NCBI GenBank assembly: GCA_965218585.1 | Contig: CBDCLE010000002.1 | Coordinates: forward strand, 288,001 to 352,000 | DNA length: 64,000 nucleotides | Direction of reading: 5' to 3' | Source: Terriglobia bacterium | GTDB taxonomy: Bacteria > Acidobacteriota > Terriglobia > 20CM-2-55-15 | In this document: positions 1,951 to 45,986 of the stretch, piece by piece | Layout of the letters: each line of letters opens with the position of its first letter | How positions within the stretch are numbered: the first letter of the stretch is position 1 | The notes under the pieces: model-generated | What the model was told of the DNA's origin: nothing | What the model saw: only the letters and a program-made list of their open reading frames with translations | Databases searched by the model: none | Translations under genes and position numbers: made by a program

Positions 1951-2005
1951 GATCGAAATCTCCGGTGATTATATACTTTACACAGAAATAATGCCGATGC
2001 TACAA

Positions 2006-2182
2006 TCATTTCATGGTTGTAGCATCCGTATTTTTATCAGCACTTTCCGGTTGCTCAATCAGCTTATCCAGCTCACGTTTCACGCGCTTTCCGAAGATTT
2101 TCTCAACGATCTCCACGTCGGTCTTCTCGGTGAGATTCTTCGGGAGTCTTCGCTTTCGCTTTCTCTTGGAGTTTTGAGTCAT
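2006..2182 (-). CDS. Small basic protein of the IS1595 element ([17 protein letters not shown]...)
   Basis: ATG shares the CATG palindrome with the transposase ATG; GAGG upstream; present in both copies. Confidence 0.5.
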   Translation of the reverse strand: MTQNSKRKRKRRLPKNLTEKTDVEIVEKIFGKRVKRELDKLIEQPESADKNTDATTMK

Positions 2183-3083
2183 GCCTGACACCGCCTCGTT
2201 GAATCTTGTACGTTTGATTGATCGCTTTCCGAACGAAGAAAAATGCAGGGAGTTTCTTGAAAACCTGCGGTGGCCGAACAGCGTTGGCTGTCCTCGCTGT
2301 GGCGACACATCGCTTTGTGAGATCGCAAGTCGCGACCAATGGGATTGTCTCTCATGCCGCTACCAGTTCAGCGTGACGGCGGGAACGATCATGCACGATT
2401 CCCACCTGCCGCTGAGGAAGTGGTTTCTGGCGATTTATCTCATTCTCGAAGGCAAGAAGGGGATTTCGGCCAACCAGTTGAAGCGCACCATCGGTGTCTC
2501 CTACAAGACAGCCTGGTATCTCTGTCACCGCATCCGCTCCGCGATGGGACATAGCGAACCGGACGGCCCGACGCTGTTTGGGGTGGTCGAGGTCGATGAA
2601 ACCCTGGTCGGCGGCAAGGCCAAAGGCAAGGGGAGCGGCTACAGAGGCAACAAGACTTGGGTGGCCGGCGCGATCCAGCGGGGCGGGAAGGTCCGCCTGG
2701 AGCGGGTTCCAAACATCCGGCGTCACACACTCCATGCTTTCATCCGGCGCAACATCAAGGATGAGGCCGCAGCGATCTATACCGACGAACTGAAGTCTTA
2801 CCTCGGGATCGAGGATCACGACACGCGCCATGAGACCGTCAACCACTCCGCTGAGGAATGGGTTGTCGGCGATGTCCACACCAACAGCATTGAGGGCGTG
2901 TGGAGCCTGTTCAAGCGGTCTATCGTCGGATCGTTCCATAAGATCAGTGCGAAACATCTGGACCGTTATCTTGAGGAACTGGAATGGCGCTTCAACAACC
3001 GCGACAACCCTTACATCTTCCGGGATGCCTTGCGTTTGATCGTCAACGCGGACATGCTCCCCTACAAGGATCTGGTGGCCTAG
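2181..3083 (+). CDS. IS1595 family transposase
   Basis: Zn ribbon CPRC..CLSC, HTH ([19 protein letters not shown]), [37 protein letters not shown] motifs. Confidence 0.96.
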   Translation: MPDTASLNLVRLIDRFPNEEKCREFLENLRWPNSVGCPRCGDTSLCEIASRDQWDCLSCRYQFSVTAGTIMHDSHLPLRKWFLAIYLILEGKKGISANQLKRTIGVSYKTAWYLCHRIRSAMGHSEPDGPTLFGVVEVDETLVGGKAKGKGSGYRGNKTWVAGAIQRGGKVRLERVPNIRRHTLHAFIRRNIKDEAAAIYTDELKSYLGIEDHDTRHETVNHSAEEWVVGDVHTNSIEGVWSLFKRSIVGSFHKISAKHLDRYLEELEWRFNNRDNPYIFRDALRLIVNADMLPYKDLVA

Positions 3084-3313
3084 TCCAGGTTTCTTTCGAG
3101 TTCTTCTTGTCCGTTCCATGTGAGATTGAGAATCTTCAGATTCTTCCCCGATTTCTGGATTTCCAGATAACCCGCTTGGTGACAAAGATCAATATGGTAA
3201 AGAACCTCTATCCGGCTGTATTCCTCATAGCGCGGCGCCGGTAGGGGCTTGCCAGTGGCATTCTCCTCTGCGTAACGCAGAATCATGAGAATCAATTTCT
3301 TATGGCGTTTCAA
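3080..3313 (-). CDS. DUF2513-like winged-helix passenger protein
   Basis: MKR..LI..IL...YHI.LC.QAGYL...LTWNGQEEL pattern typical of DUF2513. Confidence 0.7.
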   Translation of the reverse strand: MKRHKKLILMILRYAEENATGKPLPAPRYEEYSRIEVLYHIDLCHQAGYLEIQKSGKNLKILNLTWNGQEELERNLD

Positions 3314-3332
3314 TAGATCACTCCCTCTTTAC

Positions 3333-3362
3333 TTGACACAAACTTCCTTCCTGCCATAGCCT
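3333..3362 (+). promoter_or_regulatory. sigma70-like promoter inside the IS (TTGACA-18-TAGCCT)
   Basis: Perfect -35 at 3333-3338; TAnnnT -10 at 3357-3362; predicted TSS falls at the base of the long stem at 3368. Confidence 0.5.
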
Positions 3363-3367
3363 TCTTA

Positions 3368-3477
3368 TTGCCAAAACACGTTGCGTGTACGCCCATCGTC
3401 GGGCTGCTCGCTGAATACAACACCCTTCGGGGAAATAGGTGGGGCTCCGCACTACAACGCGCGGCGTGTTTTGGCAA
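3368..3477 (+). ncRNA. Candidate structured leader or small RNA
   Basis: 21-bp closing stem (3368-3388/3457-3477) that is fully paired only if 3 G.U pairs are allowed; encloses a cUUCGg hairpin and a GCCC/GGGC hairpin. Confidence 0.5.
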
Positions 3478-3536
3478 ACTGGCCCGGCGGCCAATGCCGG
3501 TCGCCCGCCAACCAAAGATATGAGAGGAGACACACT

Positions 3537-4052
3537 ATGAATCACAAGAAGCAGCTTACTTTGGTAGCCCTTGTCCTTCTCGCAACGACAGCGTGTTCTT
3601 CGCGGAGAGTGAGCGTGATCATTCCAGCTACACAGCCGTTGTCGGCTTTCTCCGTCTTGGAGGTTGCAGAGATCGACACCAACGTTCCGGACGTCGAGTT
3701 TCAAGTTCCGATCAACATGAGGCAAGAGCTCGTCCAGAAGATATCCGAAATAAGAAGGTTTCGATCCGTCACCCAACAGACCGATGAAACCGAGGGGGTA
3801 TTGCGCTTGGAGAGCACGATCCTCAGCTATGAGAAGGGTTCTCGGGCGAAGCGGTACCTCATCGGATTTGGAACTGGAAAGAGCTATATGACCATGCGCG
3901 GGATCATGATCAACAAGACCACAGGGGAGAAGGTGTTCGAAGGGGACTTCGAAGGAGAGATTTCTGGCGGCTTCCTTGGTGGAAGCTCCAGATCCACCGA
4001 GAACGCCGTGGTTGATGAAGTCCGGGACTACTTCAGGGAAAGATTTCCCTAG
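3537..4052 (+). CDS. DUF4410-like lipoprotein (IS passenger)
   Basis: Lipobox-like LATTAC; EKGSRAKRYLIGFGTGKS motif; GAGGAG RBS. Confidence 0.75.
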   Translation: MNHKKQLTLVALVLLATTACSSRRVSVIIPATQPLSAFSVLEVAEIDTNVPDVEFQVPINMRQELVQKISEIRRFRSVTQQTDETEGVLRLESTILSYEKGSRAKRYLIGFGTGKSYMTMRGIMINKTTGEKVFEGDFEGEISGGFLGGSSRSTENAVVDEVRDYFRERFP

Positions 4053-4184
4053 AAATAGCGACCGTGAAACGGGGGAGAGTTTCATTCTTCTCCCCCGTCA
4101 TGATTCGCCCGCTCGGTATCGCTGGACGGGGCAATTTTTTCAAATTCATACTTTCTTGCGAATTTGAGATCCCTTCCCATTGAT

Positions 4185-4613
4185 TTAGCAAGAAGGAGGG
4201 GGAGCCAAGTTGTACCACTGTTTTGTATCCAGAACAGGAGATGGCACACCCAATGCGTTGAGCCTATCCCTAAGTCTCAGCATTTTTACCTCTGTCTTAG
4301 CTGAGATGTAGTCTCTCCTTATCGAAACGTCGACGAGCAGAGCATCAAGAACTTCTTCAATATCCTCATGGAGAACGTAAAATCGTCCACTCGGAAGCAT
4401 TCTTCTAATCGCGCTCTGCATAGTGACCACGACCCAACCTATAGACAATATCGTCACGCTGATAGCAACAATGGGAAGGAAGGCTCCCACGATTGGAATG
4501 ACCTGCGTCATTTTCGTGGTAGCCCCCTGAAAATCGACCAGTAGGCCACATGAGCCACCCAAAGCAGCGACAGCTTTCCAAGGCGAGAGTTCGCTATTCT
4601 TCCAGCGCGACAT
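4185..4613 (-). CDS. Membrane-anchored passenger protein (possibly frameshifted near 4208)
   Basis: Hydrophobic segment IPIVGAFLPIVAISVTILSIGWVVV; intact here, IS256-interrupted in copy 2. Confidence 0.5.
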   Translation of the reverse strand: MSRWKNSELSPWKAVAALGGSCGLLVDFQGATTKMTQVIPIVGAFLPIVAISVTILSIGWVVVTMQSAIRRMLPSGRFYVLHEDIEEVLDALLVDVSIRRDYISAKTEVKMLRLRDRLNALGVPSPVLDTKQWYNLAPPPSC

Positions 4614-4697
4614 CGGGCCATGCTAACCCCCTGCGTTTTGTGTGTAAAGTATATAATCACCAGTTTTTCAGTCGTTACCAACCTTTCTTCAATCAAC

Positions 4698-6062
4698 GAG
4701 GTCATTACAAAAGGTGTGTAAAAGTCATCAGGCGGCGGCCTTCGATTTCATCACGACTCTGATGCCGTCAGCGAATTGCTGACCATCATAGACCTCTTGT
4801 AAGAGTTCGGATCCTTTTAAGTGTCGCCAAGCCTTCTCAGCGACACGTAGTAGCTTCCAGATCATTGCCGTTGCATTCTCGACACGCTTGAATCGGCGAG
4901 CGGCGTTGGTGCGGAGGCGAACCATGTCGAAGGGCGATTCGACGATGTTGGTTGTTCTCAGATGCACCCAGTGTTGTTTCGGGAACTCATAGAAAGTAAT
5001 CATCCGGTCCCAGTCCCGCAACAGCGTCTCACCCGCTTTGGGATAGTTCTTCTCATATCGGCGGACGAACTGATCCCGCTTTCGTTCGCAGGCCGCGCGG
5101 GAGTTCGCGAAGGCCATCCCATGAAGCAGCTGTCTGGCCGCGGGCTGCTCGGTCTTCGGCAGATGATCGACCACGTTGATCGACTTGTGGTTCCAGCAGC
5201 GTTGTTCCTGGCCCTGGGGCTGTTGCTCGGCCAGCGCGGACCAGATGCCCAGGTGACCGTCCGCGACAGTCAGCCGTCCCAGCTTCAGGCCCCGTCTCTG
5301 GAGATTGCGCAGAATGCGGCTCCAGGACTCCTTGCTTTCCCGCTGCCCGCTCTCACAGGCCAACAGCACTTTGCGCCCGTCTGACAAGGCTCCGATGATC
5401 ACCAGCAATGCCGCTCGCTCTTTCGCGATCCCCGCTTTCACGTACAAGCCGTCTGCCCACTGGTACACGACCTCGAGGCCGGACAGGTCCTGCTGGACCC
5501 ACTCGTCATACTCCAACTGCCAGGTCGATTTCAGTCGTTGGATCGATGCTCGCGACAACGGAGCGCCAGCGCCAAGCAGTCCGCGCATGGCCTGCTCGAA
5601 GTCCCCTGTGGCCAGACCGTGGAGGTAGAGATCGGGAAGTAGCTCGCCCAGCTGTTTCGATTTCCGTCGAAAATACGGCAGGATCTGACTCTCGAACCGC
5701 TCGGCGGTGTTTCAAACCCGAGGTCGTCGAACCTCCATCGTACCGTTCATCATTGCGAAGCGTCGCGGTTTCCCGTGACCGTTCCGGTATCCTCGTCGAT
5801 TCGGACTCCGCTCCAACTTTTCCCGACCCAGAAATTGAGTGACTTCGTCCTCGAGCAGCTCCTGTAGCCAGACTTGGACCCGGGATCGCGCCCAGTCCTC
5901 CAAACCTTCATACGCGTTCGTTGACGCCACTGATGCCGGTATGTTCTTCTTCTTCATGGGTGGTGTACCTTTCTCCCGATTGCTGCCGGGATTGCTTACG
6001 GTTTCGAATTCACCGAAAGCGTACACCGCCTTCTCTTTTTACACACCGATTGGAACGACCTC
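4698..6062 (-). mobile_element. IS256-family element, copy 1
   Basis: IRs GAGGTC(A/G)TT.CAA..GGTGTGTAAAA; 8-bp TSD CAATCAAC (4690-4697 / 6063-6070). Confidence 0.95.
4728..5957 (-). pseudogene. IS256 transposase with nonsense mutation
   Basis: CGA->TGA at 5712-5714 relative to the intact copy at 58207-59436. Confidence 0.9.
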
Positions 6063-6874
6063 CAATCAACGCACAAGCGACGCTGGATGGAACCCAGATG
6101 GGTCTCCAACGGACACTAGCCCGACTGACCTCGGGTCTCAGAATTAACGGAGCTGCAGATGATGCCGCGGGCCTCGCGGTTGCTAATCGGCACAAACTGG
6201 ACAACACCGGTTTGTCCATTGGTATCCGGAGCGCGAATGACGCCATCAGCAAGCTCCAGATCGAAGACGGCGCGCTGACCAACATCGCGTTATTGCTGGA
6301 TCGGGCTCTGACTCTGGCGAGCCAGACCGCTTCAGATACTTTCACCGGTTCCAGATCTACGCTGGATGCCGAGTTCCAGTCCGTGATTTCAGAAATCACG
6401 AAGAACGCGACAGCTGCCGGTGTCGAGACGGGCAACGCGAACCTGAATGCCCGCTCGGTTTTCGTCGGAAACACGACGACAAACACATCGGCCAGCGTCA
6501 CTTACGTTTCGTTCGCGCTGACCTCAGCGGTCGATGGTCAGGGACTTGGCATCAGCACCCAGAACATCACGTCGCAGGCCAATGCAGCCACGGCAATCTC
6601 CAACATTCAGGCTGCCGTTGGAACGCTCGGTACCGTTCAGGGCCGCGTGGGTGCTGCGATGAACCGGTTGAGCTTCGCGATCTCGCAGGCGCAGACAATG
6701 TCTGTCAGTGTGAAGGCGTCGGAGTCTCGAATCCGGGACGCCAATATCGCAGAGGAAGCCGCTGCACTGACGAAGTTTAATATCCTGACCCAGAGTGGTT
6801 TGGCTGCACTGTCGCAGGCGAACCAGTCATCTCAATCCGTCCTGACCCTACTCCGGTAGTCCGTCCTACCCCCA

Positions 6875-6913
6875 CGGGAGCGACCTTTCTCAAACGGCAA
6901 AGCGTCGCTCCCG
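6875..6913 (+). terminator. Hairpin downstream of flagellin
   Basis: CGGGAGCGAC...GTCGCTCCCG inverted repeat just after the stop codon; no U-tract. Confidence 0.4.
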
Positions 6914-6994
6914 ACCTCGGTTCCCTAAGACAATCCAATCTCCCAGCAGCTAAGGCACGAGGGCGGCAGTCACGAAGTCAGGGCTAGGGGTTCA

Positions 6995-7024
6995 TTGACA
7001 CTCCTTTGCCCGGGGACGGATAAT
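6995..7024 (+). promoter_or_regulatory. sigma70-like promoter of the metal efflux operon (TTGACA-18-GATAAT)
   Basis: Near-consensus hexamers upstream of GTG 7034. Confidence 0.55.
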
Positions 7025-7033
7025 GATCGTACT

Positions 7034-7426
7034 GTGCAACCCCCGACTTCCTTCGTAACCGCCGTTGTAGCGCTGGCCGTCCTGTTGTCGACGCTGGCCT
7101 ACGCGCCTTTTTCGCATGTGCATTCCGAAGGGGGATACCACGGCGCGGGAGAAGTACACGGGTTCCAGGTGCATTCCCATCTTCCCGAGGCTCCCGCAGA
7201 AGGGGAAACGCACGAACCGGTCATCGGTGCTTCATCCGACGAGGGCCGTAACGTTGATCTGTTTCTTTCGCTGGCCGGCAAGCCTTTTCCGTTAGCGGAA
7301 TCTGTCGAGTTCTACACGGATGTCAGGCCGCAGTTTGAGACCAAGCAGCGTCAGGGTACCTCCCGACCCGACCGGGCTCGAGATCCCCCTGTTGCGAACG
7401 TGTCCTCCAGAGCCCCCCCTGCCTAG
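7034..7426 (+). CDS. His-rich leader protein ending in RAPPA (DUF2946/CruR-like arrest-peptide candidate)
   Basis: N-terminal hydrophobic segment, HVHSEGGYHGAGEVHGFQVHSH, C-terminal RARDPP...SSRAPPA*; sits upstream of the metal RND operon. Confidence 0.65.
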   Translation: MQPPTSFVTAVVALAVLLSTLAYAPFSHVHSEGGYHGAGEVHGFQVHSHLPEAPAEGETHEPVIGASSDEGRNVDLFLSLAGKPFPLAESVEFYTDVRPQFETKQRQGTSRPDRARDPPVANVSSRAPPA

Positions 7427-7460
7427 ACCTGCCTGCGGCGCGACCGCGCCGATGTGTAGT

Positions 7461-7489
7461 TTCGTGCGTATTGGACGCACGGAGTTTTT
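7461..7489 (+). terminator. Intrinsic terminator/attenuator-like hairpin between the leader ORF and the efflux genes
   Basis: TTCGTGCGT-ATTGG-ACGCACGGA followed by GTTTTT. Confidence 0.55.
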
Positions 7490-7509
7490 CCCCGAACCGA
7501 CGAAGAAGG

Positions 7510-7935
7510 ATGATTGTGAAAATAGTTCCCGCACTGCTTGTTTTGTGCTTCGCGTTTCTAGCAAGCTGTACAACTCCCGTTCCGATCGAAGAAGAAGTTG
7601 AAGCTGAAGTGCTGTCTCGAACTGACTTTACCGACCGGATCGAGAATTTCTTCGAATATGATCCGCTGAGGTCGGGCCAGCCAAGTGCATTCTTGATTCA
7701 CCTGACCGATCTCCTCGACGGTTCTCCCGTGGGCGGGGCGCGCGTTCAATTGCTGGTCCGGTCCGAAGGCAGTCGAAATCAAGTTACGGAGACGACAGCG
7801 CTCGTCGGTCGGGTTACCGGTATTTACGTTGCGGAGTTGGCCGTGCCAAGCCCCGGAACCTATGACATTGAATTCCGGGTTCAGAACGATAGTATCGATG
7901 AGTCGATGACTCTTACCGGGTTTGAGGTCGAGTAA
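7510..7935 (+). CDS. YtkA/FixH-like Ig-fold lipoprotein
   Basis: Lipobox FLASC; FLIHLTDL.DGSPV.GARV and GIYVAEL.VPSPGTY motifs. Confidence 0.7.
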   Translation: MIVKIVPALLVLCFAFLASCTTPVPIEEEVEAEVLSRTDFTDRIENFFEYDPLRSGQPSAFLIHLTDLLDGSPVGGARVQLLVRSEGSRNQVTETTALVGRVTGIYVAELAVPSPGTYDIEFRVQNDSIDESMTLTGFEVE

Positions 7936-7940
7936 GACGC

Positions 7941-9239
7941 ATGAAAACTGGAGAAAGTAACGACATGACGGAATCCAATGTATCTCGTGGTCACTCCGGG
8001 CCTATATGGATCGCTCTTATGGGCGTCGTGATTCTGGCGCTGCTGGTGACGCTCTACAGGAATCAGGCCGTGGAACTCGCTGCGGAAGAAGATCCCATCG
8101 AAGCCGCGTCCAGCCCAACGGTGTCCTTCTTGATGGAGCAGCAGTGGCTCATCCAGATGAAACTGGCCCAGGCCCAGCGTCGGGAACTCTCACCCCAGGT
8201 TCGTGTGGTAGGCCGAGTCATACCTGCGGATAACTACACGGCGATCATTTCTTCCCCTGTGACCGGATTGATACAGGATGCGAACCTGCCCGTTCTCGGC
8301 CAGGAGCTTCGCTCAGGCCAAGACGTTCTCACTGTCGAACAGATGCCTGAGCTATCGGATGCAGCCCAGGCGGCGCAGCTTCGCCTCGAAGCCAGTCGCA
8401 CTGAATCGGAACGGCGGCGTCTGGAGCAGTCCAAGGCAGAGGCCCAGATTCGCCTGCGGCAAGCCGAACGGGAATGGACACGGGCGAGGCGCCTGCACGA
8501 AGAGGAGTTGATGGCTCTCCAGGAAGTGGAGGCTGCCGAAACCGAATACGATGCGGCCGGGGCCGTCGTTGCCTCATACGCCGAACAGCTGACGGCTCTT
8601 GCCGAGGCACCAAGTCTGGATACCGCCATGCGGACGACCGCACCGCGACAGGTTGTCTCTGCTCCCATTGCCGGTCGGGTCAACCAGATTTTCAAAGAGG
8701 TTGGAGAACTGGTTCAACCCGGCGAACCGGTACTCGATATCGTGAATCTGGATGTCGTATGGGTCGAAGCGCCGATATTCGAAAAGGACCTTGCCGCTGT
8801 AATGGGCACCGGTGAAGTGATCTTCGAGACCATCGCGTATCCGGGCGTCGAATTCGTAGGCGAAGTCGTTGATGTCGGCGCGCGCATCGATGAAGAGACA
8901 CGAACGGCAGATGTCATCTTTTCCATACCCAATCGGGATGGCCGGCTTCGTATTGGAATGCAAGCCAACATTCGACTGGCGACCGGACCTCCCGAGGGCG
9001 TCGTTGCGATTCCGTCCGAAGCGGTTCTGGAACACGAGGGGCGTGACATCGTTTATGTCCTCCTCTCTGGCGAAGAGTTCGAACGCCGTAACGTCATATT
9101 GGGAGACCGGTACGGCGATGAAGTGGCGATTTTGGCCGGTGTGGAGCCCGGTGAGCGTGTCGTGACACAGGGGGCCTATCAGCTCAAGCTGCAGGAGTTG
9201 CAGCCGGCAGATCCGGGCGAGCATTCGCACGAGGTCTAA
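7941..9239 (+). CDS. Efflux RND periplasmic adaptor (CzcB/CusB-like)
   Basis: N-terminal TM, lipoyl/coiled-coil, VWVEA, IDEETRT, VVTQGAYQL, His tail EHSHEV. Confidence 0.92.
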   Translation: MKTGESNDMTESNVSRGHSGPIWIALMGVVILALLVTLYRNQAVELAAEEDPIEAASSPTVSFLMEQQWLIQMKLAQAQRRELSPQVRVVGRVIPADNYTAIISSPVTGLIQDANLPVLGQELRSGQDVLTVEQMPELSDAAQAAQLRLEASRTESERRRLEQSKAEAQIRLRQAEREWTRARRLHEEELMALQEVEAAETEYDAAGAVVASYAEQLTALAEAPSLDTAMRTTAPRQVVSAPIAGRVNQIFKEVGELVQPGEPVLDIVNLDVVWVEAPIFEKDLAAVMGTGEVIFETIAYPGVEFVGEVVDVGARIDEETRTADVIFSIPNRDGRLRIGMQANIRLATGPPEGVVAIPSEAVLEHEGRDIVYVLLSGEEFERRNVILGDRYGDEVAILAGVEPGERVVTQGAYQLKLQELQPADPGEHSHEV

Positions 9240-9249
9240 GGGGAGTAAC

Positions 9250-12200
9250 GTGCTGGACAAAATCATCCAATGGTCTCTCGACAATCGACTTCTGGTTGTC
9301 GTCGGCGCGATCGGTCTTCTTGTCTATGGCGGCATCGTCGCCGCCCGTACGCCGGTCGACGTTTTTCCCGATCTGACGGCTCCCACGGTAACGGTCCTCA
9401 CAGAGGCCCACGGCCTGGCGCCTGAAGAGGTTGAAGCTGTCGTGACCGTGCCGCTCGAGGCTGTCTTGAACGGCACGTCGGGCGTGTTTCGGGTCCGTTC
9501 GAATTCAGCCGCCGGCCTCTCGCTGATCTTTGCCGAGTTCGAGATCGGAACAGATATTTATCGTGCGCGACAGTTGGTAACGGAGAAACTCGGGCAAGTG
9601 CAGTTGCCGATTGGAGTCGAGCCTCCGGTGCTGGGGCCGATCTCTTCGACCATGGGCGAGATCATGCTCGTTTCCATGCGTTCGGAGGGCGAAACCTCCA
9701 ACATGGATCTCCGTTCGCTGGCCGACTGGGTTGTGCGGCCCCGCCTGCTCGCGATTACAGGTGTGTCCCAGGTCATTGTTATTGGCGGCGACCTGAAGCA
9801 GTACCAGGTGATCGTGGATCCCGCCTTGCTCGTTGATTACGACCTGTCTCTTGAGGACGTCACTCATGCGGTTGCCGAGGCGAACGCAGTCAGCACCGGC
9901 GGTTTCATGGAGCGAACCAACGAAGAGTTCCTGATCCGTGGGCGCGGCCGTGTGAGTCAGGTTGAAGATCTTGCGGAGTCGGTCATAACGATCAGGGACG
10001 GCAGTCCAATTCTGATCGAGCACGTCGCCGAAGTTCGTCTGGGTGCTGCAATAAAGCGGGGCGACGGAAGCTTCAACATGGAATCCGCGATCGTCGTCAC
10101 GATCCAGAAGCAGCCGAACGCCAACACGCTCGAGCTGACCTCGGAAATCGAAACGACGCTCGCATCGCTCGAACGGACGCTGCCCGAGGACGTTTCGATC
10201 GATGCCGAGGCGTTTCAACAGGCCAACTTCATCGAGCTCGCGGTCGGCAATGTCCGTCGTGCGTTGGTGGAAGGCGGACTGATGGTAAGCATCGTCCTGT
10301 TCCTTTTTCTCTGGAACTTCAGGACGACCTTCATCAGTCTGACCGCCATTCCCCTTTCTTTGCTGACCGCTATTCTCGCGATGAGCTATTTTGGCATCAG
10401 CATCAACACGATGACGCTGGGAGGTCTGGCGATCGCCATCGGGGAACTGGTAGACGATGCGATTGTGGACGTCGAGAACGTTTTCCGACGGCTCAAACAG
10501 AACGTCGGGTTGGGAAATCCTCAGAAGATTTCCACCGTCGTCTTTAAAGCGTCCAGCGAGATCCGGAATTCCATTTTTTACGCGACAGCGATCATTATTC
10601 TTGTTTTCCTCCCCCTGTTCTCACTTGCGGGATTCGAAGGGCGGATGTTTGCGCCGCTCGCGTTCGCATACATTTTTTCGATAGCGGCTTCGCTTCTGGT
10701 GGCCCTGACGGTGACGCCGGTCCTCTGCTACTGGATGCTCGGACGGTTCACACGGACCCAGGACACGGGCGATTCGCAACTGGTCGCGTTTTCTAAGCGA
10801 CGATACAGCAAGGTTCTGGGGTGGGCGCTGGCCCGTCCGTTCGAAGTCATAGCCGTCTCGGTTCTCCTGCTCGTGACGTCGGTCGCGCTGCTTCCGCTCA
10901 CCGGACGCGAGTTTCTTCCTCTGTTCAACGAAGGTGCCGTGAACGTCAACGTTACCCTGCCTCCGGGAACTTCGCTGGAAGAGTCGAATCGCGTCGGCAA
11001 CGTAGTCGAAGGAGTGTTGCATCAGATTCCAGAAGTCGTCTCAACGACCCGGCGAACGGGACGTGCCGAACAGGACGAACACGCTGCGGGAGTCAACGCG
11101 AGCGAACTGGAAGTCGTCATGCTGGCGTCGGATCGATCGCAGTTCGCGATCATGGACGAGATTCGCGAGAGTCTGGCACCCATCCCGGGAGTCGGCTTGG
11201 AGGTCGGGCAGCCGATTTCGCACCGCATCGACCATCTGTTGAGCGGCACCCAGGCTCAGATTGCCATCAAGTTGTTCGGCCCCGACCTTCCGACTCTGAG
11301 AAACAAAGCGGAAGAGATTCGCGCTTCGATGGAAAACGTTCCAGGCATCGTGGACCTGTTGGTGGAGCCTCAGGTCGGCGTGCCCCAGGTACAGGTGAAT
11401 ATAGATCGCGCCAATGCAGCAGCCGTGGGTCTGTCTGCGGGCGATCTGGCCGAGGCTGTGGAAACCGCTTTTAACGGTCGTGTGGTCGGGCAGGTCCTGG
11501 AGCAACAGCGAAGCTACGATCTCATCGTTCGCCTGGAAGACGAAGCTCGCGAATCACTGGATTCGATCCGGAACACGTTGATTGAAACACCGACCGGTGC
11601 GAAGGTTCCCATCGCTCAGGTTGCGGATGTGCGTTCTGACCAGGGGCCGAATACGATCAACCGGGAGAACGGGCAACGCCGGATCATTGTTCAGTCCAAC
11701 GTCTCGGGACGTGACCTGGGCAGCGTGATCAATGATGTTCGAGCTTCGGTGGGAAGGGAAGTCGCCCTCCCCGAAGGTTATTTCGTCCAGTATGGAGGCC
11801 AGTTTGAAGCGCAGGAGCAGGCCTCGGAGAGGATCTTCTGGTTGTCGCTCGTCGCGATCGGCGGAATATTTCTGCTGTTGTTTATCGCGTTGAAATCCGT
11901 GCGGGCTTCACTCCTTGTGATGGCGAACCTGCCTCTGGCCCTGATCGGTGGGGTCCTCATCGTCTTTCTATCGGGAGGCACGCTTTCAGTGGCTTCTCTG
12001 GTGGGTTTCATCACGCTCTTCGGTATCGCGACGCGCAACGGCATCATGCTTGTGACCCACTACCGGCATCTGATCGAGGAGGGTGTGGCCTTCCGTCAGG
12101 CTGTGATCCAGGGATCGATGGAGCGGTTGAGTCCTATCCTGATGACGGCGCTTGTTACCGGCGTCGGGTTGATACCTCTGGCTCTGGGAGTCGGCACGCC

Positions 12201-12375
12201 TGGAAAGGAAATCCAGCAGCCCATGGCCGCTGTAATTCTCGGCGGAATGCTCACTTCGACCTTTCTGAACATGATCGTCATTCCGACGCTGTATTTGAGA
12301 TATGGACGCGGGGAAGAGGAAGTCTGGGAAGACGAATGGGCAGACGGCGCGGATCCTACCCCTGCAGGCGATTGA
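9250..12375 (+). CDS. CusA/CzcA family heavy-metal RND permease
   Basis: PVDVFPDLTAPTV, GLAIAIGELVDDAIVDVEN, ERLSPILMTAL; 1041 aa. Confidence 0.96.
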   Translation: MLDKIIQWSLDNRLLVVVGAIGLLVYGGIVAARTPVDVFPDLTAPTVTVLTEAHGLAPEEVEAVVTVPLEAVLNGTSGVFRVRSNSAAGLSLIFAEFEIGTDIYRARQLVTEKLGQVQLPIGVEPPVLGPISSTMGEIMLVSMRSEGETSNMDLRSLADWVVRPRLLAITGVSQVIVIGGDLKQYQVIVDPALLVDYDLSLEDVTHAVAEANAVSTGGFMERTNEEFLIRGRGRVSQVEDLAESVITIRDGSPILIEHVAEVRLGAAIKRGDGSFNMESAIVVTIQKQPNANTLELTSEIETTLASLERTLPEDVSIDAEAFQQANFIELAVGNVRRALVEGGLMVSIVLFLFLWNFRTTFISLTAIPLSLLTAILAMSYFGISINTMTLGGLAIAIGELVDDAIVDVENVFRRLKQNVGLGNPQKISTVVFKASSEIRNSIFYATAIIILVFLPLFSLAGFEGRMFAPLAFAYIFSIAASLLVALTVTPVLCYWMLGRFTRTQDTGDSQLVAFSKRRYSKVLGWALARPFEVIAVSVLLLVTSVALLPLTGREFLPLFNEGAVNVNVTLPPGTSLEESNRVGNVVEGVLHQIPEVVSTTRRTGRAEQDEHAAGVNASELEVVMLASDRSQFAIMDEIRESLAPIPGVGLEVGQPISHRIDHLLSGTQAQIAIKLFGPDLPTLRNKAEEIRASMENVPGIVDLLVEPQVGVPQVQVNIDRANAAAVGLSAGDLAEAVETAFNGRVVGQVLEQQRSYDLIVRLEDEARESLDSIRNTLIETPTGAKVPIAQVADVRSDQGPNTINRENGQRRIIVQSNVSGRDLGSVINDVRASVGREVALPEGYFVQYGGQFEAQEQASERIFWLSLVAIGGIFLLLFIALKSVRASLLVMANLPLALIGGVLIVFLSGGTLSVASLVGFITLFGIATRNGIMLVTHYRHLIEEGVAFRQAVIQGSMERLSPILMTALVTGVGLIPLALGVGTPGKEIQQPMAAVILGGMLTSTFLNMIVIPTLYLRYGRGEEEVWEDEWADGADPTPAGD

Positions 12376-12510: not shown

Positions 12511-12547
12511 TATGCTTTCTGCTTCTTCATATATTTGATCCGGGAGG

Positions 12548-13863
12548 ATGAGAACTGTGAGACGACTACTTACGTTTGTTTGCCTGGTCGCTGTTGGGAG
12601 CCTTGTTATTTCAGGGGACCTCGCCGCCCAGGATCTGGTAATCACCAATGCCCGCATCATTGATGGGAACGGCGGCGTCATTGCCGACGGCACCGTGGTC
12701 GTCGAGGACGGCCGGATTTCTCAAGTGAGCCCCAGCGCGGCGACCGGTCCCGATGGCGCACGTCAAATCGATGCCCAGGGGATGACGGTTATGCCGGGCT
12801 TTATCGATGGTCACCGTCACATCATTGGCGGACCTGGAGACCAATGGCTCGCCGAGCAGGCCTCAGACCGCATGCGCGAGTTTCTGGAAGCCGGGTTCAC
12901 GTCAGTTCAGTCCGGTGGCGGTGCGATCCCACCACAGGTCGAACTCCGGCGCCGCATTGATGAAGGAGAATTGGAAGGCCCCCGTATTATTGTTTCTGTT
13001 TTTTCGCAACTGGCGGCCCCTCCAGAGGGAGGAGGTGGAGGCCGAGACAGAGGTGACCCGGCCCGTGGCGATTCGGCGCGTCCGGGCTTTCGTCCCACTG
13101 AAGCTGCGAATGTAATACCCGAAGAGGATACTCGTCGGACAGTGAGAGATGCCGTTGCAGCCGGTGTCGACGCCATCAAGGCGGTTATTCTCGTCACGCC
13201 AGGTGGTCCGGAAGAGAACACCCTGTCGGTCATCGTCGATGAAAGCCACAGCCAGGGCGTTCGCAGCATCACGCACGCCACCAGCGTTCAGGATACGGTT
13301 GCCGCTGTTCGGGCCGGAACGGATGTGCTCATGCATACGCCGCACACGGACCTGCTGGACATCTCCACGGCTCAAATGATTGCCGACGCCGGAATTCCCA
13401 TGGTTTCAACGCTTGGCGTATTTACTCCAACATTTGCCGAAGATAACCAGGCCATCCGGGAGTCGACCGGCGCTGATAACGAAGCGCGCTTCAGGGATCT
13501 GGGCCTCTTCCCCGAGGGTGCAGAACCTTGGTACAGCGTGGGACAGGGACCGGTGAATGCGCGGCTGTTCTGGGATGCGGGAGGTGTCTACGCCTTTGGA
13601 ACAGACACGACGTACCTGCCGAAGGACACGCTCGAAAACGAACTGAAGCCGCTCAGGCTCGTCTTTTCCAGACAGGACATCATCCAGATGTTGACGAAGA
13701 ATGCCGCAGCGGCCATGGGCCGAGTGACGATCTGGGTACGCTGGAGACCGGCAAACTGGCCGACATCGTTATGATCGACGGCAACCCGTTGGCGGAAACT
13801 TCAGATCTGTTGAAGGTTGCTGTTGTGATTCGTGATGGACGGGTGGTGGTTGATAAGAGGTAA
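12548..13863 (+). pseudogene. Secreted amidohydrolase, paralog 1, frameshifted near the C-terminus
   Basis: MPGFIDGHRH metal motif; one C missing at 13722/13723 versus paralog 2 (GGCCG[C]AGTGAC); the tail DDLGTLETGKLADIV lies in another frame. Confidence 0.85.
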
Positions 13864-13938: not shown

Positions 13939-13986
13939 CTCGTTTACGCTATGATGACTTACTTCCTATAAGCACAGTCCCGGAGG

Positions 13987-15306
13987 ATGAGAACCGTGAA
14001 ACGACTACTTACGTTTGTTTGCCTGGTCGCAGTTGGGAGTCTCGCTGTTTCTGGAGATCTCGAGGCTCAGGATCTGGTAATTACGAATGCCCGCATCATT
14101 GATGGAAACGGTGGCGTCATCTCCGACGGCACTGTTGTTGTAGAGGACGGGCGGATTTCTTCGGTCAGTGCCGGAGATGCGACCGGCCCCGACGGTGCGC
14201 GTCAAATCGACGCTCAGGGGATGACGGTGATGCCGGGCTTTATCGATGGTCACCGCCACATCATTGGCGGTCCTGCCGACCAGTGGCTGGCCGAGCAGGC
14301 TTCAGACCGCATGCGCGAGTTTCTGGAAGCCGGGTTCACCGCCGTTCAGTCCGCTGGCGGCGCCGTGCCACCCCAGCTCGAACTTCAACGACGCATCAAT
14401 GAGGGAGAACTGGACGGTCCCCGCATTGTCGTAACCGCCCGTGCCCAGGTCGCGGCTGCTGCTGGTCGAGGTGGCGCTGGTCGCGGAGGATTCAGTGATC
14501 CGGCCCGGGGTAACGGTGCGCGTCCGGGCTTCCGTCCCACCGAACCCGCTAACGCAATACCTGAAGCCGATACCCGTCAAGCGATCAGGGCGGCGGCTGC
14601 GGCCGGTGTCGAGGCGATCAAGACGGCTATCGTTGTCACGCCCGGCGGTCCGGAGGAGAACACCCTGTCCGTCATCGCCGAGGAAAGCGCCAGCCGGGGC
14701 ATGCGGAGTGTTACGCACGCGACTGCCACTGAGGACACGCTTGCGGCCATTCGAGCCGGGACGCATGTGCTCATGCACACGCCACACACGACGATGCTGA
14801 CTATCTCCGAGGCTCAGGAGATTGCGAACGCCGGAATCCCGATGGTCTCGACCCTTGGCGTATACGTTCCGACGTTTTCCGAAGACAACTCGGCGGCTCG
14901 GGCGGCGACCGGCTCTGACAACGAGCCCCGTTTCCGCGACCTGGGCCTCTATCCGGAAGGCGCGCTGCCCTGGTACAGCGTCGGGCAGGGTCCTGTCAAT
15001 GCGAGACTGTTCTGGGATGCGGGGGGTATCTACGCCTTTGGAACAGACACCTCGTATCTGCCGAAGGACACGCTGGAACACGAACTGAAGCCACTCAGGC
15101 TCGTCTTTTCCAGACAGGACATCATCCAGATCATGACGAAGAACGCGGCGGCGGCTATTGGCCGCAGTGACGATCTGGGAACGCTCGAGACCGGCAAGCT
15201 GGCCGACATCGTGATGATCGACGGGAACCCGCTGGCCGAAACGTCAGATCTCTTGAAGGTGGCTTTAGTCGTTCGTGATGGACGAGTCGTTGTGGATAAG
15301 AGATAA
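13987..15306 (+). CDS. Secreted amidohydrolase, paralog 2
   Basis: Signal peptide, DGHRH, FGTDT, GTLETGKLAD motifs. Confidence 0.92.
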   Translation: MRTVKRLLTFVCLVAVGSLAVSGDLEAQDLVITNARIIDGNGGVISDGTVVVEDGRISSVSAGDATGPDGARQIDAQGMTVMPGFIDGHRHIIGGPADQWLAEQASDRMREFLEAGFTAVQSAGGAVPPQLELQRRINEGELDGPRIVVTARAQVAAAAGRGGAGRGGFSDPARGNGARPGFRPTEPANAIPEADTRQAIRAAAAAGVEAIKTAIVVTPGGPEENTLSVIAEESASRGMRSVTHATATEDTLAAIRAGTHVLMHTPHTTMLTISEAQEIANAGIPMVSTLGVYVPTFSEDNSAARAATGSDNEPRFRDLGLYPEGALPWYSVGQGPVNARLFWDAGGIYAFGTDTSYLPKDTLEHELKPLRLVFSRQDIIQIMTKNAAAAIGRSDDLGTLETGKLADIVMIDGNPLAETSDLLKVALVVRDGRVVVDKR

Positions 15307-32726: not shown

Positions 32727-33234
32727 TGGGTGATGCGCTGACACGAGACGAACTCCGAAAGATCGTCGTTGACGAGATCCAAGAGTATTTGTCGACCTAT
32801 CGCGGAGCGGGTACCGCGGAGCGGTCCAAGGTCGGAACCGAACTATCGAGCGCAATGACACGGATTACAGCCGATTTATTGAAAAAGCGGGAAGGGCTTG
32901 TTGCCGCGTTTGCCGTGCCCGGCCAGGTCGATCACGTCATCCGTACCTGGGGACGGGCTATTTTCACCGGCACGCTGATGCTCGCGGGAGTCCTCGGCGC
33001 GGCCTGGCTCGGCATCGCCGCGACCGAACAACGATTTCGGTGGCAGGTGGCAAAGAACGCGGAGATCGCCGAACAGATTGCCGCGCAGGAACGCATCCTG
33101 GATCAACTCAACCGGAGGACGGGCGCGCTTACTCTGGAGGACGTTGCTTCGTGCTTTTTCCCGCTGACGCCGATGTAGCGGCTGTGTATCGGCTCAACAA
33201 TCGGCCGGCCGTCGAGGTTGAATGCCATGAGTGA
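32726..33234 (+). pseudogene. MobB/MbeB-like membrane protein, probable frameshift at ~33135
   Basis: TM + coiled coil; a C-terminal GGRCFVLFP tail in another frame ends overlapping the next gene. Confidence 0.4.
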
Positions 33235-34036
33235 ACGGGATGCCAATGAGAAACGGAAGATCCCGGTAGGCAAACTCGCCAGCCTGGTCCATTCAGCTGT
33301 TAACAAGAACACGGTCCCTCAACAGGCCGACGCTTCCGAGGAAGGCCAGGGACCGAAGGAGCCGGAGCGGGGCAAGGACCCCGAGAGCAAGCGTGTCAGG
33401 GAATTGGTCAAACTACTCACGGCCGCGATTGATTCCAATGATGCGAAGACCGACGAAAAGATCATCGCACTTGCCCGCAATCTCTCCGAACGAAAACGGA
33501 GTCTGATCCAGATCGCGGCGGTGAAGATCAAACAGACCGAAGAACGGACCGAAGTGGCCCTCGATCAATTTACAGACCGGATCGTGACGTTTCATGACGT
33601 GCTCACCAAAACACTGAAGGAAGGCAATGCGCAGAAAGCTCTCGAGAGAGCGCAAAAGACGCTGGATGACATCCACATGAGTTATTGGGATCGCTTCGTC
33701 AAGGGTGTCAATGACACGTATCAGAACAAACTCGATGACGCGAAGCAGCAGATACAGGGCGTTCTTGACAAGGCGACCGACAACTTTTCCAAGCAAATCG
33801 CCGCACTATTGGACAAGTCCATACGCGAGGTTCAATCGCCCGTCGGGTCGCTCAAGCTCCGGGCCTTCCGGGAGAGGCGATTGCTTATCGGGGCGCTGGT
33901 CCTGGGGCTGATGCTGGGATCTGTCCTTGGAATCATGCGCCACACACTCTGGAACAGCGCCGAGGTGGCCAGCCGTCAGGCGCTCCGCGTGTTCGGTCCT
34001 TTCGTCCTGCCACTCTCAGGTCGGAGTGAACAATGA
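33227..34036 (+). CDS. Coiled-coil protein with C-terminal TM (mobilization-accessory-like)
   Basis: ORF track; long helical region followed by LLIGALVLGLMLGSVLGIM. Confidence 0.55.
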   Translation: MSERDANEKRKIPVGKLASLVHSAVNKNTVPQQADASEEGQGPKEPERGKDPESKRVRELVKLLTAAIDSNDAKTDEKIIALARNLSERKRSLIQIAAVKIKQTEERTEVALDQFTDRIVTFHDVLTKTLKEGNAQKALERAQKTLDDIHMSYWDRFVKGVNDTYQNKLDDAKQQIQGVLDKATDNFSKQIAALLDKSIREVQSPVGSLKLRAFRERRLLIGALVLGLMLGSVLGIMRHTLWNSAEVASRQALRVFGPFVLPLSGRSEQ

Positions 34037-34056
34037 CCCCACATCGGGAGGTGAGC

Positions 34057-34242
34057 ATGCCACGACAGATCCGTGTTGCAACGACGCCGGAGGAATTTAA
34101 CGCCTGTTGGGCCAGTGGCGAGGCGTTCGAGGCGTCGGAAGAGTTGGCCGCCCGGATGGGATTTTTCCCGACCACCGAGGACGTCATCAGCGACGAGGAA
34201 TTTTTTGCCGCGCCCGATCCGAACCAGCCGGAGGCGGATTAA
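34057..34242 (+). CDS. Small acidic protein (IncP TraD-like)
   Basis: GGAGG RBS; AARMGFF..EDVISDEE resembles, from memory, the IncP TraD motif; directly precedes the ArdC-domain gene. Confidence 0.45.
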   Translation: MPRQIRVATTPEEFNACWASGEAFEASEELAARMGFFPTTEDVISDEEFFAAPDPNQPEAD

Positions 34243-36306
34243 ATGAGCCGGAGAAAAGACTTCATTGATTCTCTCCTCGATGGCGCGTCTCGATTGCATC
34301 GCGCCGCCGGGGGTCACACCCATCACCAGGTCGGCGACCTTCTCGAACGTGGCGCGGATCCAAACATCCGCAATTGGCGGGGCGAGACACCCCTGCATCG
34401 GGCCGCCATCCGGAATCCCGACCTGGATGTATCCCGCACCTTGATTAACGCCCGGGCCGACGTAAACGCCCGGGACGAGACAGGCGCGACGCCATTGCAC
34501 CGGGCCGCGCACAACCCAACCACGGGTCGCGCCCATCTCTTGATAGAGGCGGGGGCGGATGTCGGTGCCCGCGATCACGAGGGACGAACCCCTCTGCATC
34601 ATGCCGCGGAGTCGGGGCGCGAGGAAATGATCGTCTGTTTCATCGAAGCCGGGGCCGACCCGAACGTGCGCGATAACGCGGGCGAGACGCCCCTGCATCG
34701 GGCCCTCGACAAGGGTTGGGGTGAGGGCACCGAGACTCTTCTCAATCATGGGGCCGATCCGAGGGTTCGCGACAACGCGGGGCGGATTCCAATGCACCTG
34801 GCCTATGCCGCCGACCGGCAGGACCTGGTGAATCGGCTCGGCGAAGCCGGGACCCACCTGGAGGCGCGGGATGATACGGGCCGTGTGCCTGTCCAATACG
34901 TTCGCTCCGGAGACGTGCGGACAAGCCCGGAATCGAAGGCGCGGATTCAAGACACTGTCAATCCGGCCGATTCAGAAGGACGCACTCCCTTGCATCGTGC
35001 CGCTGAAAAAGCCTCCTATATCGGCACGCACCGATTGCTTCAACAGGGAGCGGATCCGAACGTTCGCGACAACGAGGGACGGACCCCTCTGGAATTGGCG
35101 ACCGCCAGGCGCGCGCGGCTCGATCACGATGCGCTTCCCATGGGCGATGAAACGGTGCGGCACTTCGAGAAGGTCGCCACGCCCCAACCAGAACACAAAC
35201 CCCACACCGATACCCATCCCGGCAGGGGGCGGCCCACGCGCGGAAAGACAAGCACCGAAGAGTATTACAGGCAGTTTGCCGACGACATCATCTCCCAGAT
35301 CGAGCGTGGCACCGCGCCGTGGCAGAAGCACTGGAAGCCCGGCGAAAACCGATTGCCCGAAAACTTCTCTACGGGCGCGCGCCATCAAGGCGGGAATGCG
35401 TTGCAACTGATGGTCAAGCGCACCGGGCGCGCCTGGAACGATCACCGCTGGGGCACCTACAACCAGATCAAAGAGGCCGGGGGGCAGGTGCGGAAAGGCG
35501 AACGGGGCACCACGATCCTCGTCTACAAGCCGCCGATGCGGGCCGACGGGAAGGAAGCCACCCCGGGCGAGCTGGCCGAAGACGGCCGCAAGAATCCCGA
35601 TGCTCGGAAGACAACGCGGCCCATGTGGAAACGCTACACCGTGTTCAACGTCGAGCAAGCCGACGGGTTGAAACTCCCCAACCGGGCCGCGCCGACTCCC
35701 GAATGGGAGGCGCAGCAGAACGTCGAGAAAGTCATCGAGGCGAATGGTGTGCCGATCCGCGAAGTCAACGGCGACCGGGCCTACTACAACATGCCGCGCG
35801 ACGAGATCGTCCTGCCCGACCGGTCGCAATTCAAGAACGCGGAAGGCTATTACCAGACCGCGCTCCATGAAGTCGGCCACAGCACCGGACACGAGAGCCG
35901 CATGAACCGGGAGAGTCTTCAACAGGGCATCAAGGACGGCTTCGGGTCGGAGGCTTACGCGCGGGAAGAACTGCGGGCGGAAATCAGCGCCATGATGTCC
36001 TCCGATCGCCTGGGCGTGGCCTACGAACCGCAACACGGAACCGCCTACGTCAAGGGATGGGTCGAGGTGCTCCAGGACGACCCGAAGGAAATCCACAAGG
36101 CGGCGGCCGAGGCCGGACGCATTTCCGACTATGTCTGCGAAGCGCCCGAGCGCAACCGAGCCAAGACCATGGGCGAGACCAGGGATCGACCCACCGTAAC
36201 GGGCGAGGTGCCGGGACGCGGGCGGGCGATGCCCACTCCGGTGGTCGCGCATCAACCGCAACCGGCGGTCCCGACGAGGGCACCTGAAATCGAGTTGAGC
36301 CGCTAA
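34243..36306 (+). CDS. Ankyrin-repeat / ArdC (ssDNA-binding + zincin metallopeptidase) fusion
   Basis: ~7-8 GxTPLH/GADPN repeats (aa ~10-290), then GTAPWQKHW, RWGTYNQI..GGQVRKGERG, YTVFNVEQ, LHEVGHSTGH, YAREELRAE. Confidence 0.92.
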   Translation: MSRRKDFIDSLLDGASRLHRAAGGHTHHQVGDLLERGADPNIRNWRGETPLHRAAIRNPDLDVSRTLINARADVNARDETGATPLHRAAHNPTTGRAHLLIEAGADVGARDHEGRTPLHHAAESGREEMIVCFIEAGADPNVRDNAGETPLHRALDKGWGEGTETLLNHGADPRVRDNAGRIPMHLAYAADRQDLVNRLGEAGTHLEARDDTGRVPVQYVRSGDVRTSPESKARIQDTVNPADSEGRTPLHRAAEKASYIGTHRLLQQGADPNVRDNEGRTPLELATARRARLDHDALPMGDETVRHFEKVATPQPEHKPHTDTHPGRGRPTRGKTSTEEYYRQFADDIISQIERGTAPWQKHWKPGENRLPENFSTGARHQGGNALQLMVKRTGRAWNDHRWGTYNQIKEAGGQVRKGERGTTILVYKPPMRADGKEATPGELAEDGRKNPDARKTTRPMWKRYTVFNVEQADGLKLPNRAAPTPEWEAQQNVEKVIEANGVPIREVNGDRAYYNMPRDEIVLPDRSQFKNAEGYYQTALHEVGHSTGHESRMNRESLQQGIKDGFGSEAYAREELRAEISAMMSSDRLGVAYEPQHGTAYVKGWVEVLQDDPKEIHKAAAEAGRISDYVCEAPERNRAKTMGETRDRPTVTGEVPGRGRAMPTPVVAHQPQPAVPTRAPEIELSR

Positions 36307-36324
36307 CAGAAGGAGGGGCCCGGA

Positions 36325-36594
36325 ATGACGGACACGAAACCGGCCGATGAGATCCGCTTCGGCCGTGTCAAGGGGACAATCTGGATGAATCCCACCGAGG
36401 ACGGACAGGCCCGCTACAGCGTCGTCTTTTCACGCGTCTACCGCGCCGGTGAGCAGTGGAAGAGTACGCACAGCTTCGGCCGCAATGACCTCTTGCTCCT
36501 GGCCAAGGTCGCCGACATCGCACACACCCGGATCTGGGCGCTTCGACAGGATGAAGCAGCCGCGGCCGAGCCGGCGCCCGAGACAGAGGCATAG
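36325..36594 (+). CDS. Small putative ssDNA-binding (PC4/SpoVG-like) protein
   Basis: IRFGRVKGTIWMN...YSVVFSRVYR.GEQWKSTHSFGRNDLL; strong RBS. Confidence 0.65.
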   Translation: MTDTKPADEIRFGRVKGTIWMNPTEDGQARYSVVFSRVYRAGEQWKSTHSFGRNDLLLLAKVADIAHTRIWALRQDEAAAAEPAPETEA

Positions 36595-36598
36595 CCGC

Positions 36599-37510: not shown

Positions 37511-37824
37511 AACCGATCTTCTTTGGCATCGGCATCACGGCGGTGTGGGCCGGGACGGCTGTTCTTTTGGTCGGGTCGCAACTCGATTTCCTATCGCCCT
37601 GGTGGGGCGCGATCCTTCGCACCTATTGGCTCACGCTTACTCTTCACGCGGCGGCGGCGTGCGTCACGAGCATCGTGGTGTTCTACGAGCTGGCACGTGT
37701 GCTGGGGCTGGCCGATCTGGGGCGGCGGGTTGAATTGGTAGAGCGCGGCATTCGCCGTGGCTCCGGGGATCGGGACCTTCAACAGGCTCTCGAACGGGGC
37801 GATGACGGTCTGTATCCCGATTAA
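37507..37824 (+). CDS. Small two-TM conjugation-region protein
   Basis: Overlaps the previous stop (ATGA); two hydrophobic helices. Confidence 0.6.
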   Translation: MKPIFFGIGITAVWAGTAVLLVGSQLDFLSPWWGAILRTYWLTLTLHAAAACVTSIVVFYELARVLGLADLGRRVELVERGIRRGSGDRDLQQALERGDDGLYPD

Positions 37825-37846
37825 CAAACGAACAGGGAGGGCAACG

Positions 37847-41749: not shown

Positions 41750-41751
41750 TC

Positions 41752-43988: not shown

Positions 43989-44019
43989 GGACCGTTCGCA
44001 AACTAAGAGGAGCATCCCC

Positions 44020-44913: not shown

Positions 44914-44915
44914 AG

Positions 44916-45981: not shown

Positions 45982-45986
45982 ACGTC

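Follow-up and report, generated by a model that had tools for sequence, protein, structure and literature searches.

What does the small His-rich open reading frame ahead of a heavy-metal efflux operon do, and in which direction would it act, in the 64,000-nt stretch of Terriglobia bacterium DNA analysed here (the window)? The sequence-only reading of the locus had described a promoter, a 130-aa ORF with a hydrophobic N-terminus, a His cluster and a C-terminal RAPPA, two hairpins, and genes for a lipoprotein, a periplasmic adaptor (MFP) and a CusA/CzcA pump, and all of these are found in the sequence. The interpretation favoured here is that of a cis-acting arrest leader which would turn on an operon for RND export of divalent metals (Ni/Co/Zn), and to this chain as a whole a probability of about 0.5 is given. 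The elements of the promoter and leader are the following:

6995..7024, forward strand: sigma-70-type promoter, -35 TTGACA / 18 nt / -10 GATAAT, 11/12 consensus matches
7034..7426, forward strand: leader ORF, GTG 7034 to TAG 7426, 130 aa, C-terminal RAPPA
7046..7105, forward strand: hydrophobic helix over residues 5-24, either a Sec signal or an uncleaved anchor, with a near-invariant Pro25 after it
7115..7180, forward strand: two HxH motifs (H28, H30, H47, H49), predicted beta-strand pair, candidate divalent-metal site
7253..7264, forward strand: V-D-L-F motif, residues 74-77, at a fixed distance to the arrest Arg, in a position like that of the CruR CxxC
7379..7390, forward strand: upstream arrest-like motif RDPP, residues 116-119, family form [RH]xP[PA]
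7409..7420, forward strand: RAPP arrest motif, residues 126-129, codons C-rich and G-poor, candidate Rho-loading tract

The promoter is the sole sigma-70 site found by a promoter scan within 6300-8300 (shuffle mean 0.6), and the -35 and -10 hexamers of the closest ortholog, locus L001, are the same. Since the promoter ends 9 nt before the start codon, the leader mRNA is probably leaderless or nearly so. A longer leader starting at TTG 6995 was rejected, as such an ORF would run across the -35 box and the "protein" conserved at that place is the promoter. The leader contains seven His (residues 28, 30, 36, 42, 47, 49 and 60) and zero Cys, and matches no family in Pfam or NCBIfam. Also, an Rfam search of positions 5500-9500 at E up to 1 returned no RNA family match, which rules out a known riboswitch at the leader. 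AlphaFold models of the window leader predict a helix over residues 5-23 (pLDDT 87-95 over residues 1-20) and, with moderate confidence in two runs, His-bearing strands at residues 27-31 and 44-48; beyond the helix and these two strands no structure is predicted, the pLDDT being below 50 for residues 69-92.

A single-sequence search with the leader recovered 10 homologs from 45 candidates, and the C-termini of these first 10 and of the window leader read RAPP in 8/11 and RPPP in 3/11, while a leader profile search yielded 37 representatives. Occurrence was also surveyed independently of the leader, using the downstream lipoprotein as bait; 111 genome matches were confirmed and the best 80 of them analysed. 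These best 80 loci are mostly labelled Acidobacteriota, and the nearest lipoprotein match (72%) is from a Terriglobia genome. A homologous leader is located directly upstream of the lipoprotein in 16 of the 80, and a pair of genes encoding a repressor and a membrane peptidase stands in the leader's slot in 57. The two never occur together (0/80), and 7/80 have neither: a second type of small ORF, His-rich and Pro-tailed, is carried by four of these, in two the sequence extends only about 300 nt upstream, and one has unrelated genes. The leader and the BlaI-type pair are mutually exclusive, and the leader thus fills the slot of a regulator. On a quick tree of 62 pumps (the window and the 61 of the 80 loci with enough sequence), the regulator types need three changes, which equals the minimum, and the swap between leader and BlaI pair should therefore be counted as a few independent events and not as 80 observations.

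Conservation of the C-terminal motif was assessed with a profile of the first 85 positions only, built without the locus sequences. At E<1e-9 this profile selects 16 of 12122 frames, which are exactly the 16 locus leaders, and all 16 end in R[AGSP]PP, against a background of 3 in 2713 other long frames. RAPP conservation in orthologous leaders, on which the sequence-only reading had staked its case, is borne out in this permissive form. R-x-P-P is retained in the 16 locus leaders and in the window despite varied synonymous codons. In addition, a promoter of the form TTGAC[AT]-17/18-xAxAAT that ends 6-9 nt before the start codon is present at 14 of the 17 leader loci, and from this conserved spacing the leader mRNA looks leaderless. 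In all 16 loci and the window the leader comes first in its operon, with a gap of 38-94 nt to the next gene (89 nt in the window, from leader stop to lipoprotein start). Judged by these comparisons of sequence, the window leader is a conserved gene and a real regulatory leader.

The anatomy of the family was derived from 62 sequences (the window leader, 16 locus frames and 45 proteins), mostly gathered with profiles that include the C-terminus; P0158 (460 aa, 6 stretches) was excluded ahead of the counts. H28, H30, H47 and H49 are each invariant (62/62), P25 is found in 59/62, CxxC in 0/62, and Cys is absent after the first HxH in 42/62. The earlier description of a Cys-free, His-based RAPP leader at the head of a heavy-metal RND operon is upheld by these counts and by the 16 loci and the window. 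The C-terminal motif is RAPP in 42 sequences, RSPP in 14, RPPP in 4, RGPP in 1 and lacking in 1, so that R-A-P-P or a permissive RxPP lies near the C-terminus of 61/62. Another [RH]xPP motif, in most cases HDPP (23) or RDPP (12), ends 6-7 residues before the arrest Arg in 60/61. RDPP, RSPP and RPPP are reported as partly arrest-permissive and HGPP as a motif selected for arrest (PMC12992588), so that two arrest sites may be present in the family. Counted without alignment gaps from the arrest Arg in 48 non-redundant sequences, the D-L-F pattern [VILFR][DENS][LVIFT][FLM] starts 52-53 residues upstream in 39/48, 54-55 in 3 and elsewhere in 2; in the window leader D75 is 51 residues from the Arg. 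The spacing from H47 to the Arg is looser, at 78-88 residues over the 62 sequences. The comparative analysis makes it highly probable that the leader is a ribosome-arrest leader, and its His residues are likely to sense metal.

The region between leader and pump, and the operon itself, comprise:

7429..7459, forward strand: hairpin 1, 6-bp GC core at 7436-7451, its L001 counterpart being a 5-bp stem
7461..7489, forward strand: hairpin 2 and five U, a weak terminator-like site, not conserved
7516..7935, forward strand: lipoprotein with Ig/YtkA-like domain, GTG start 6 nt downstream of an AAGGA, both conserved in L001
7941..9239, forward strand: RND periplasmic adaptor (MFP), TIGR01730 above cut-off
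9250..12375, forward strand: CusA/CzcA-family heavy-metal RND pump, NieA/HME5-like, TIGR00914 855.9 bits (cut-off 701.45)

A lipoprotein start at TTG 7471 was discarded, the GTG 7516 start and its ribosome site being conserved in L001. The YtkA-like match of the lipoprotein is weak and below cut-off. A Hymenobacter protein encoded between TolC and the adaptor (L083:3254-3865) matches the lipoprotein profile at E 1e-7 in a six-sequence test, indicating that the accessory domain of the lipoprotein occurs beyond Acidobacteriota. No gene for an outer-membrane factor lies between leader and pump in the window. Such a gene follows the lipoprotein in three relatives checked and is absent from the window, L001 and L004, and across the lipoprotein-bait loci an OEP gene often intervenes between lipoprotein and MFP.

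The best solved match of the pump is ZneA, followed by CusA. The three copper-site methionines of CusA, which we take to be M573, M623 and M672, align with Thr, Ser and His in the window pump. HAAGVN and HRIDH are present in the window pump and in nearly all full-length relatives, and a TM4 pattern is common to the window pump and the Cupriavidus and Variovorax pumps. Cupriavidus NieA, which has been proposed, not shown, to export nickel, has the motifs HAEGVH and HRLDH (PMC7060636). By sequence, the window pump resembles the HME5/NieA-like type, and a divalent-metal substrate is likely.

Metal-sensing arrest leaders are already known in principle, and such leaders have already been catalogued computationally. 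CutF of Rhodobacter capsulatus resembles the window leader in being a small exported product with a metal motif and a C-terminal Pro motif, encoded by the first gene of its operon, and its metal-induced stalling is described as switching on a detoxification gene (PMC9973294; bioRxiv 10.1101/2025.02.05.636593). The "opposite logic to CruR" proposed by the sequence-only reading is therefore not new, being the published CutF mechanism. Features of CutF's own are a CxxxC, a PPP motif, EF-P sensitivity and the melting of a stem over the cutO ribosome site, whereas the window family combines RAPP with a second [RH]xPP and four His, and the predicted access to the ribosome site changes little (median 0.4 kcal/mol). 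Ozturk et al. 2023 divide their CutF-like set into 29 clusters, with OEP, ACR_tran and HlyD_D23 among the neighbours; clusters 14 and 17 are His-only and adjoin HupE/UreJ, not RND pumps (PMC9973294). The family shows the broad CutF-like features given in that source, namely a signal, a Cys/His motif, PP in the last 15 residues and a same-strand neighbour within 1000 nt.

Similarly, CruR of Bordetella, a DUF2946 protein, shares with the family a C-terminal RAPP, an export-like N-terminus, a fixed spacing between motif and RAPP, a C-rich 3' end and a long gap (PMC9426467). In CruR the CxxC is at 90-93 and RAPP at 139-142, so that the CxxC lies 46-49 residues before the Arg, and this spacing matters (PMC9426467); its RAPP arrests in vitro (PMC12992588). 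The D-L-F at 52-53 residues matches the CruR CxxC spacing by analogy only. CxxC, a 45-nt 5' leader, control of copper import and release by metal are CruR's own (PMC9426467). The DUF2946 Pfam model, on the assumption that it is present in the Pfam copy used, matches 0/61 family sequences at E 0.1. In its working the family is like CutF or CruR, but it is not a DUF2946 member.

Leaders before RND genes are also not new as such. In the source data of Fujiwara et al. (EMBO J 2025, PMC12992588), RAPP versus AAPP uORFs number 620/148 before RND adaptors, 530/380 before TolC and 50/7 before CusA/CzcA, the last given as a 28-fold enrichment, and many of the listed RAPP uORFs are His-rich. Two entries, MBZ5575594.1 and MCH8266643.1, both before TolC, show by eye the motifs of the window family. 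The novelty that had been claimed for leaders before RND efflux genes accordingly falls away for the most part, given these RAPP uORFs and the published His-only CutF-like clusters. The main text of PMC12992588 contains no "czc", "efflux", "leaderless" or "tandem", and the passages covered report no test of an efflux leader. A family with four His, a D-L-F ruler, a double motif, a leaderless layout and the BlaI swap was not found described in the literature, although the published uORF or CutF-like lists may already contain it; a search combining leaderless, Acidobacteria, leader peptide, metal efflux and stalling found nothing that unites at least four of these. According to the portions of these sources that were covered, CruR and CutF are the arrest leaders with a tested metal response, both copper- and Cys-based and of opposite sign. 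With its lack of Cys, its four invariant His, its fixed ruler and its strong RAPP, the family would offer a clean test of non-copper control by stalling and of what sets the sign. If the proposed reading is true, it would be a sensor of metals other than copper that acts through arrest of translation.

Beside the observed conservation, position, spacing and exclusivity with another regulator, the arrest, periplasmic location, metal, sign and output are conjectured as follows. Transcription from the sigma-70 promoter would, to judge from its conserved spacing, produce a leaderless mRNA starting at the leader. The N-terminal helix would target the growing chain to Sec, and the strand pair with its four His would emerge in the periplasm. 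By comparison with ApdA, ApdP and CruR, the ribosome would pause at the upstream [RH]xPP and arrest at RAPP, with D75-L-F some 50 residues out, close to the exit of the translocon. Without metal, pulling would free the arrest and the ribosome would depart, pump-gene expression then being stopped within the 89-nt gap; with metal bound, arrest would persist and the pump genes would be expressed, as for CutF. As for CruR, Rho at the C-rich RAPP codons would be a more probable cause of the cut-off than an intrinsic terminator. RAPP alone is reported to be insufficient, the adjacent region also being needed for arrest (PMC12992588). Against the model, the His strands predicted by AlphaFold do not include D-L-F, and a third strand carrying it is absent from both runs, which are low-confidence models. 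A more detailed version can be imagined, in which the leaderless mRNA couples ribosome to RNA polymerase from the first base, and a four-His site outside the membrane, closed by the Asp that lies some 51 residues away from the peptidyl-transferase centre, locks two successive arrest sites ([RH]xPP, then RxPP), making a distinct trans-membrane Ni/Co/Zn sensor that turns on an export pump; as a package this is possible, though on the doubtful side.

The sign of the response is deduced from the export function of the pump, and metal turning the pump on is somewhat the better bet. With the sign of CruR, metal would instead fold the His strands together with D-L-F, the pull would release the arrest, metal would turn the operon down and the pump would be made under metal shortage. 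RAPP arrest is strong by default (PMC12992588), in CruR, the sole RAPP metal leader tested, metal releases the arrest, and the position of D75, 51 residues before the Arg, is close to that of C90 in CruR, 49 before; also, HupE/UreJ genes occur in two related operons. These two operons belong to the second leader type, and because of them simple detoxification is not certain. This inverted sign is nevertheless unlikely, as the pump belongs to the CusA/CzcA family of exporters and its Cupriavidus look-alike NieA is, by proposal, a nickel exporter (PMC7060636).

The same sensor could act through the intrinsic terminator at 7461-7489, as the sequence-only reading had it. Hairpin 2 has a 9-bp stem (7461-7483) followed by G, five T (7485-7489) and CCCC, and the intergenic region alone folds better than shuffles, with z -2.1. 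Over 17 leader gaps, with downstream starts chosen by hand, a hairpin of -7 kcal/mol or better is found in 13. However, only 5/17 have at least 5 T in the 8 nt after the hairpin and 2/17 at least 6, and in L001 the U-run is broken, leaving 4 T, and the stem is weakened. Family gap folds barely beat shuffles (median z -0.3; below -1.5 in 3/17), the stem starts about 45 nt beyond the P site of the stalled ribosome, and no antiterminator was found. In the window, a terminator scan makes no call at the U-tract and positions 7380-7520 fold no better than shuffles (z -0.92); the U-run could alternatively pair with the Shine-Dalgarno of the next gene, as in three related loci. An intrinsic terminator as a conserved feature of the family is not supported; as the switch of an otherwise identical sensor it is improbable.

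Other outputs for the arrest leader were weighed. In a simulation of the stalled ribosome, the cost of opening the next ribosome site changes by 0.2 kcal/mol in the window, and in 7 of the 17 leader gaps the opening energy drops by more than 1 kcal/mol. In 17/17 leaders the RxPP codons coincide with a C>G peak that reaches at least the 95th percentile and is partly forced by the Pro codons; the pattern is similar to the C-rich rut site of CruR (PMC9426467). G at these codons is below that of synonymous recoding (121 vs 169 +/- 6 expected), with a mid-leader control at 709 vs 711 +/- 12, and the depletion persists when near-copies are removed and 11 of 17 leaders are kept (75 vs 105.5 +/- 5 expected). 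Of two gene-end controls, the M56-like genes (57 of them, last 12 codons) are G-depleted too (368 vs 441) and the lipoprotein gene ends are not (218 vs 197), for which reason Rho is the leading guess and not a result. Rho acting on the C-rich RAPP codons is accordingly a tentative choice, a little short of even odds, masking of the ribosome site is rather doubtful, and an intrinsic terminator and some other output are each unlikely.

As in CzcI, the exported leader could itself be the active product, binding metal in the periplasm as a quencher or chaperone of the pump, while RAPP would only pace its synthesis. CzcI, NieI and DUF6769 are, like the family members, small exported ORFs rich in His that stand at the head of heavy-metal RND operons. 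A quenching of CzcCBA by CzcI is reported (PMC10127602), and in 3 of 6 regions examined (on Cupriavidus, Variovorax and Magnetospirillum plasmids) related pumps are headed by His-rich, Pro-tailed small exported ORFs. The nearest named ESM Atlas clusters are DUF6769 (0.96) and CzcI (0.94), a resemblance in language-model features only. However, the two annotated CzcI-like ORFs from the plasmids score about 0 bits with the family profile, DUF6769 of Pfam matches 0/61 family sequences, and CzcI is described without a C-terminal proline motif (PMC9973294) and as a pump quencher (PMC10127602). Moreover, the mature chain is mostly predicted to be unstructured, RAPP is selected against in ordinary proteins (PMC12992588) and the fixed distances to the Arg fit an action on the ribosome. 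Such a role is about as improbable as the terminator switch. A secretion or envelope monitor of the SecM/ApdP kind, whose arrest senses export capacity and whose His are no metal sensor, is least probable of all, for although the RAPP peptides that carry export signals first came to light as Sec monitors and all downstream products are exported or membrane proteins, the four invariant His and the constant link to a metal pump argue against it.

The alternative occupant of the leader's slot is a BlaI-type repressor with an M48/M56-like peptidase, which heads the lipoprotein-(OEP)-MFP-CusA operon at L002:5357-6920 and 56 other loci (57/80, among the best 80 of 111), mostly in Blastocatellia. In the one pair checked, the repressor is Penicillinase_R (BlaI-type), and its partner scores above cut-off for Peptidase_M48 and below it for M56. 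The pair may be a metal-responsive BlaI/BlaR-like system; if the reading of the leader is true, its exchange with such a pair before the same pump would imply that the pair senses metal. A literature search on BlaI, M56, CzcA and heavy metal found nothing on this pair by title or abstract start. The second His-rich leader, ending PP..[HI]PPK, replaces the BlaI pair in one clade (L029:6425-6820, L060:6416-6826, L066:6341-6832 and L076:1371-1769). A profile comparison of these four sequences with the window family gives a probability of 16.7, i.e. they are not homologous at this depth. One pump in Acidobacteriota would then be regulated in three interchangeable ways. The L060 and L066 operons contain HupE/UreJ genes, and L060 also has a superoxide dismutase-like gene. 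Among L033, L034, L043, L047, L051, L062 and L079, some are titled Clostridia, Heliobacteriaceae, Actinomycetota or Enterobacteriaceae and are nested among acidobacterial-type loci, these titles reflecting either mislabelled bins or transfer.

Several other features of the window were recorded. The leader region is bracketed by an inverted duplication of about 4.1 kb (1963-6062 and 57671-61742) in three blocks (100%, 100% and 99.7%), with transposase-like genes inside, presumably IS1595-like and IS256-like; the left IS256-like copy is interrupted and the right one intact. The duplication is either a real inversion or an assembly artefact. A short flagellin gene (6062-6859, ~265 aa), with a hairpin after its stop, lies right at the edge of the insertion sequence, and the listed ORFs of the window include no other that was recognised as flagellar. 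At 33218-51712 there is a cluster that reads like a type IV secretion system or an integrative conjugative element, its genes being, as we take them, VirB4-, VirB9-, VirB10-, VirB11- and VirD4-like together with an ankyrin/ArdC-like fusion. Finally, tandem amidohydrolase paralogs, 80% identical, follow the pump at 12539-13863 and 13978-15306, the first having a frame break near its 3' end.
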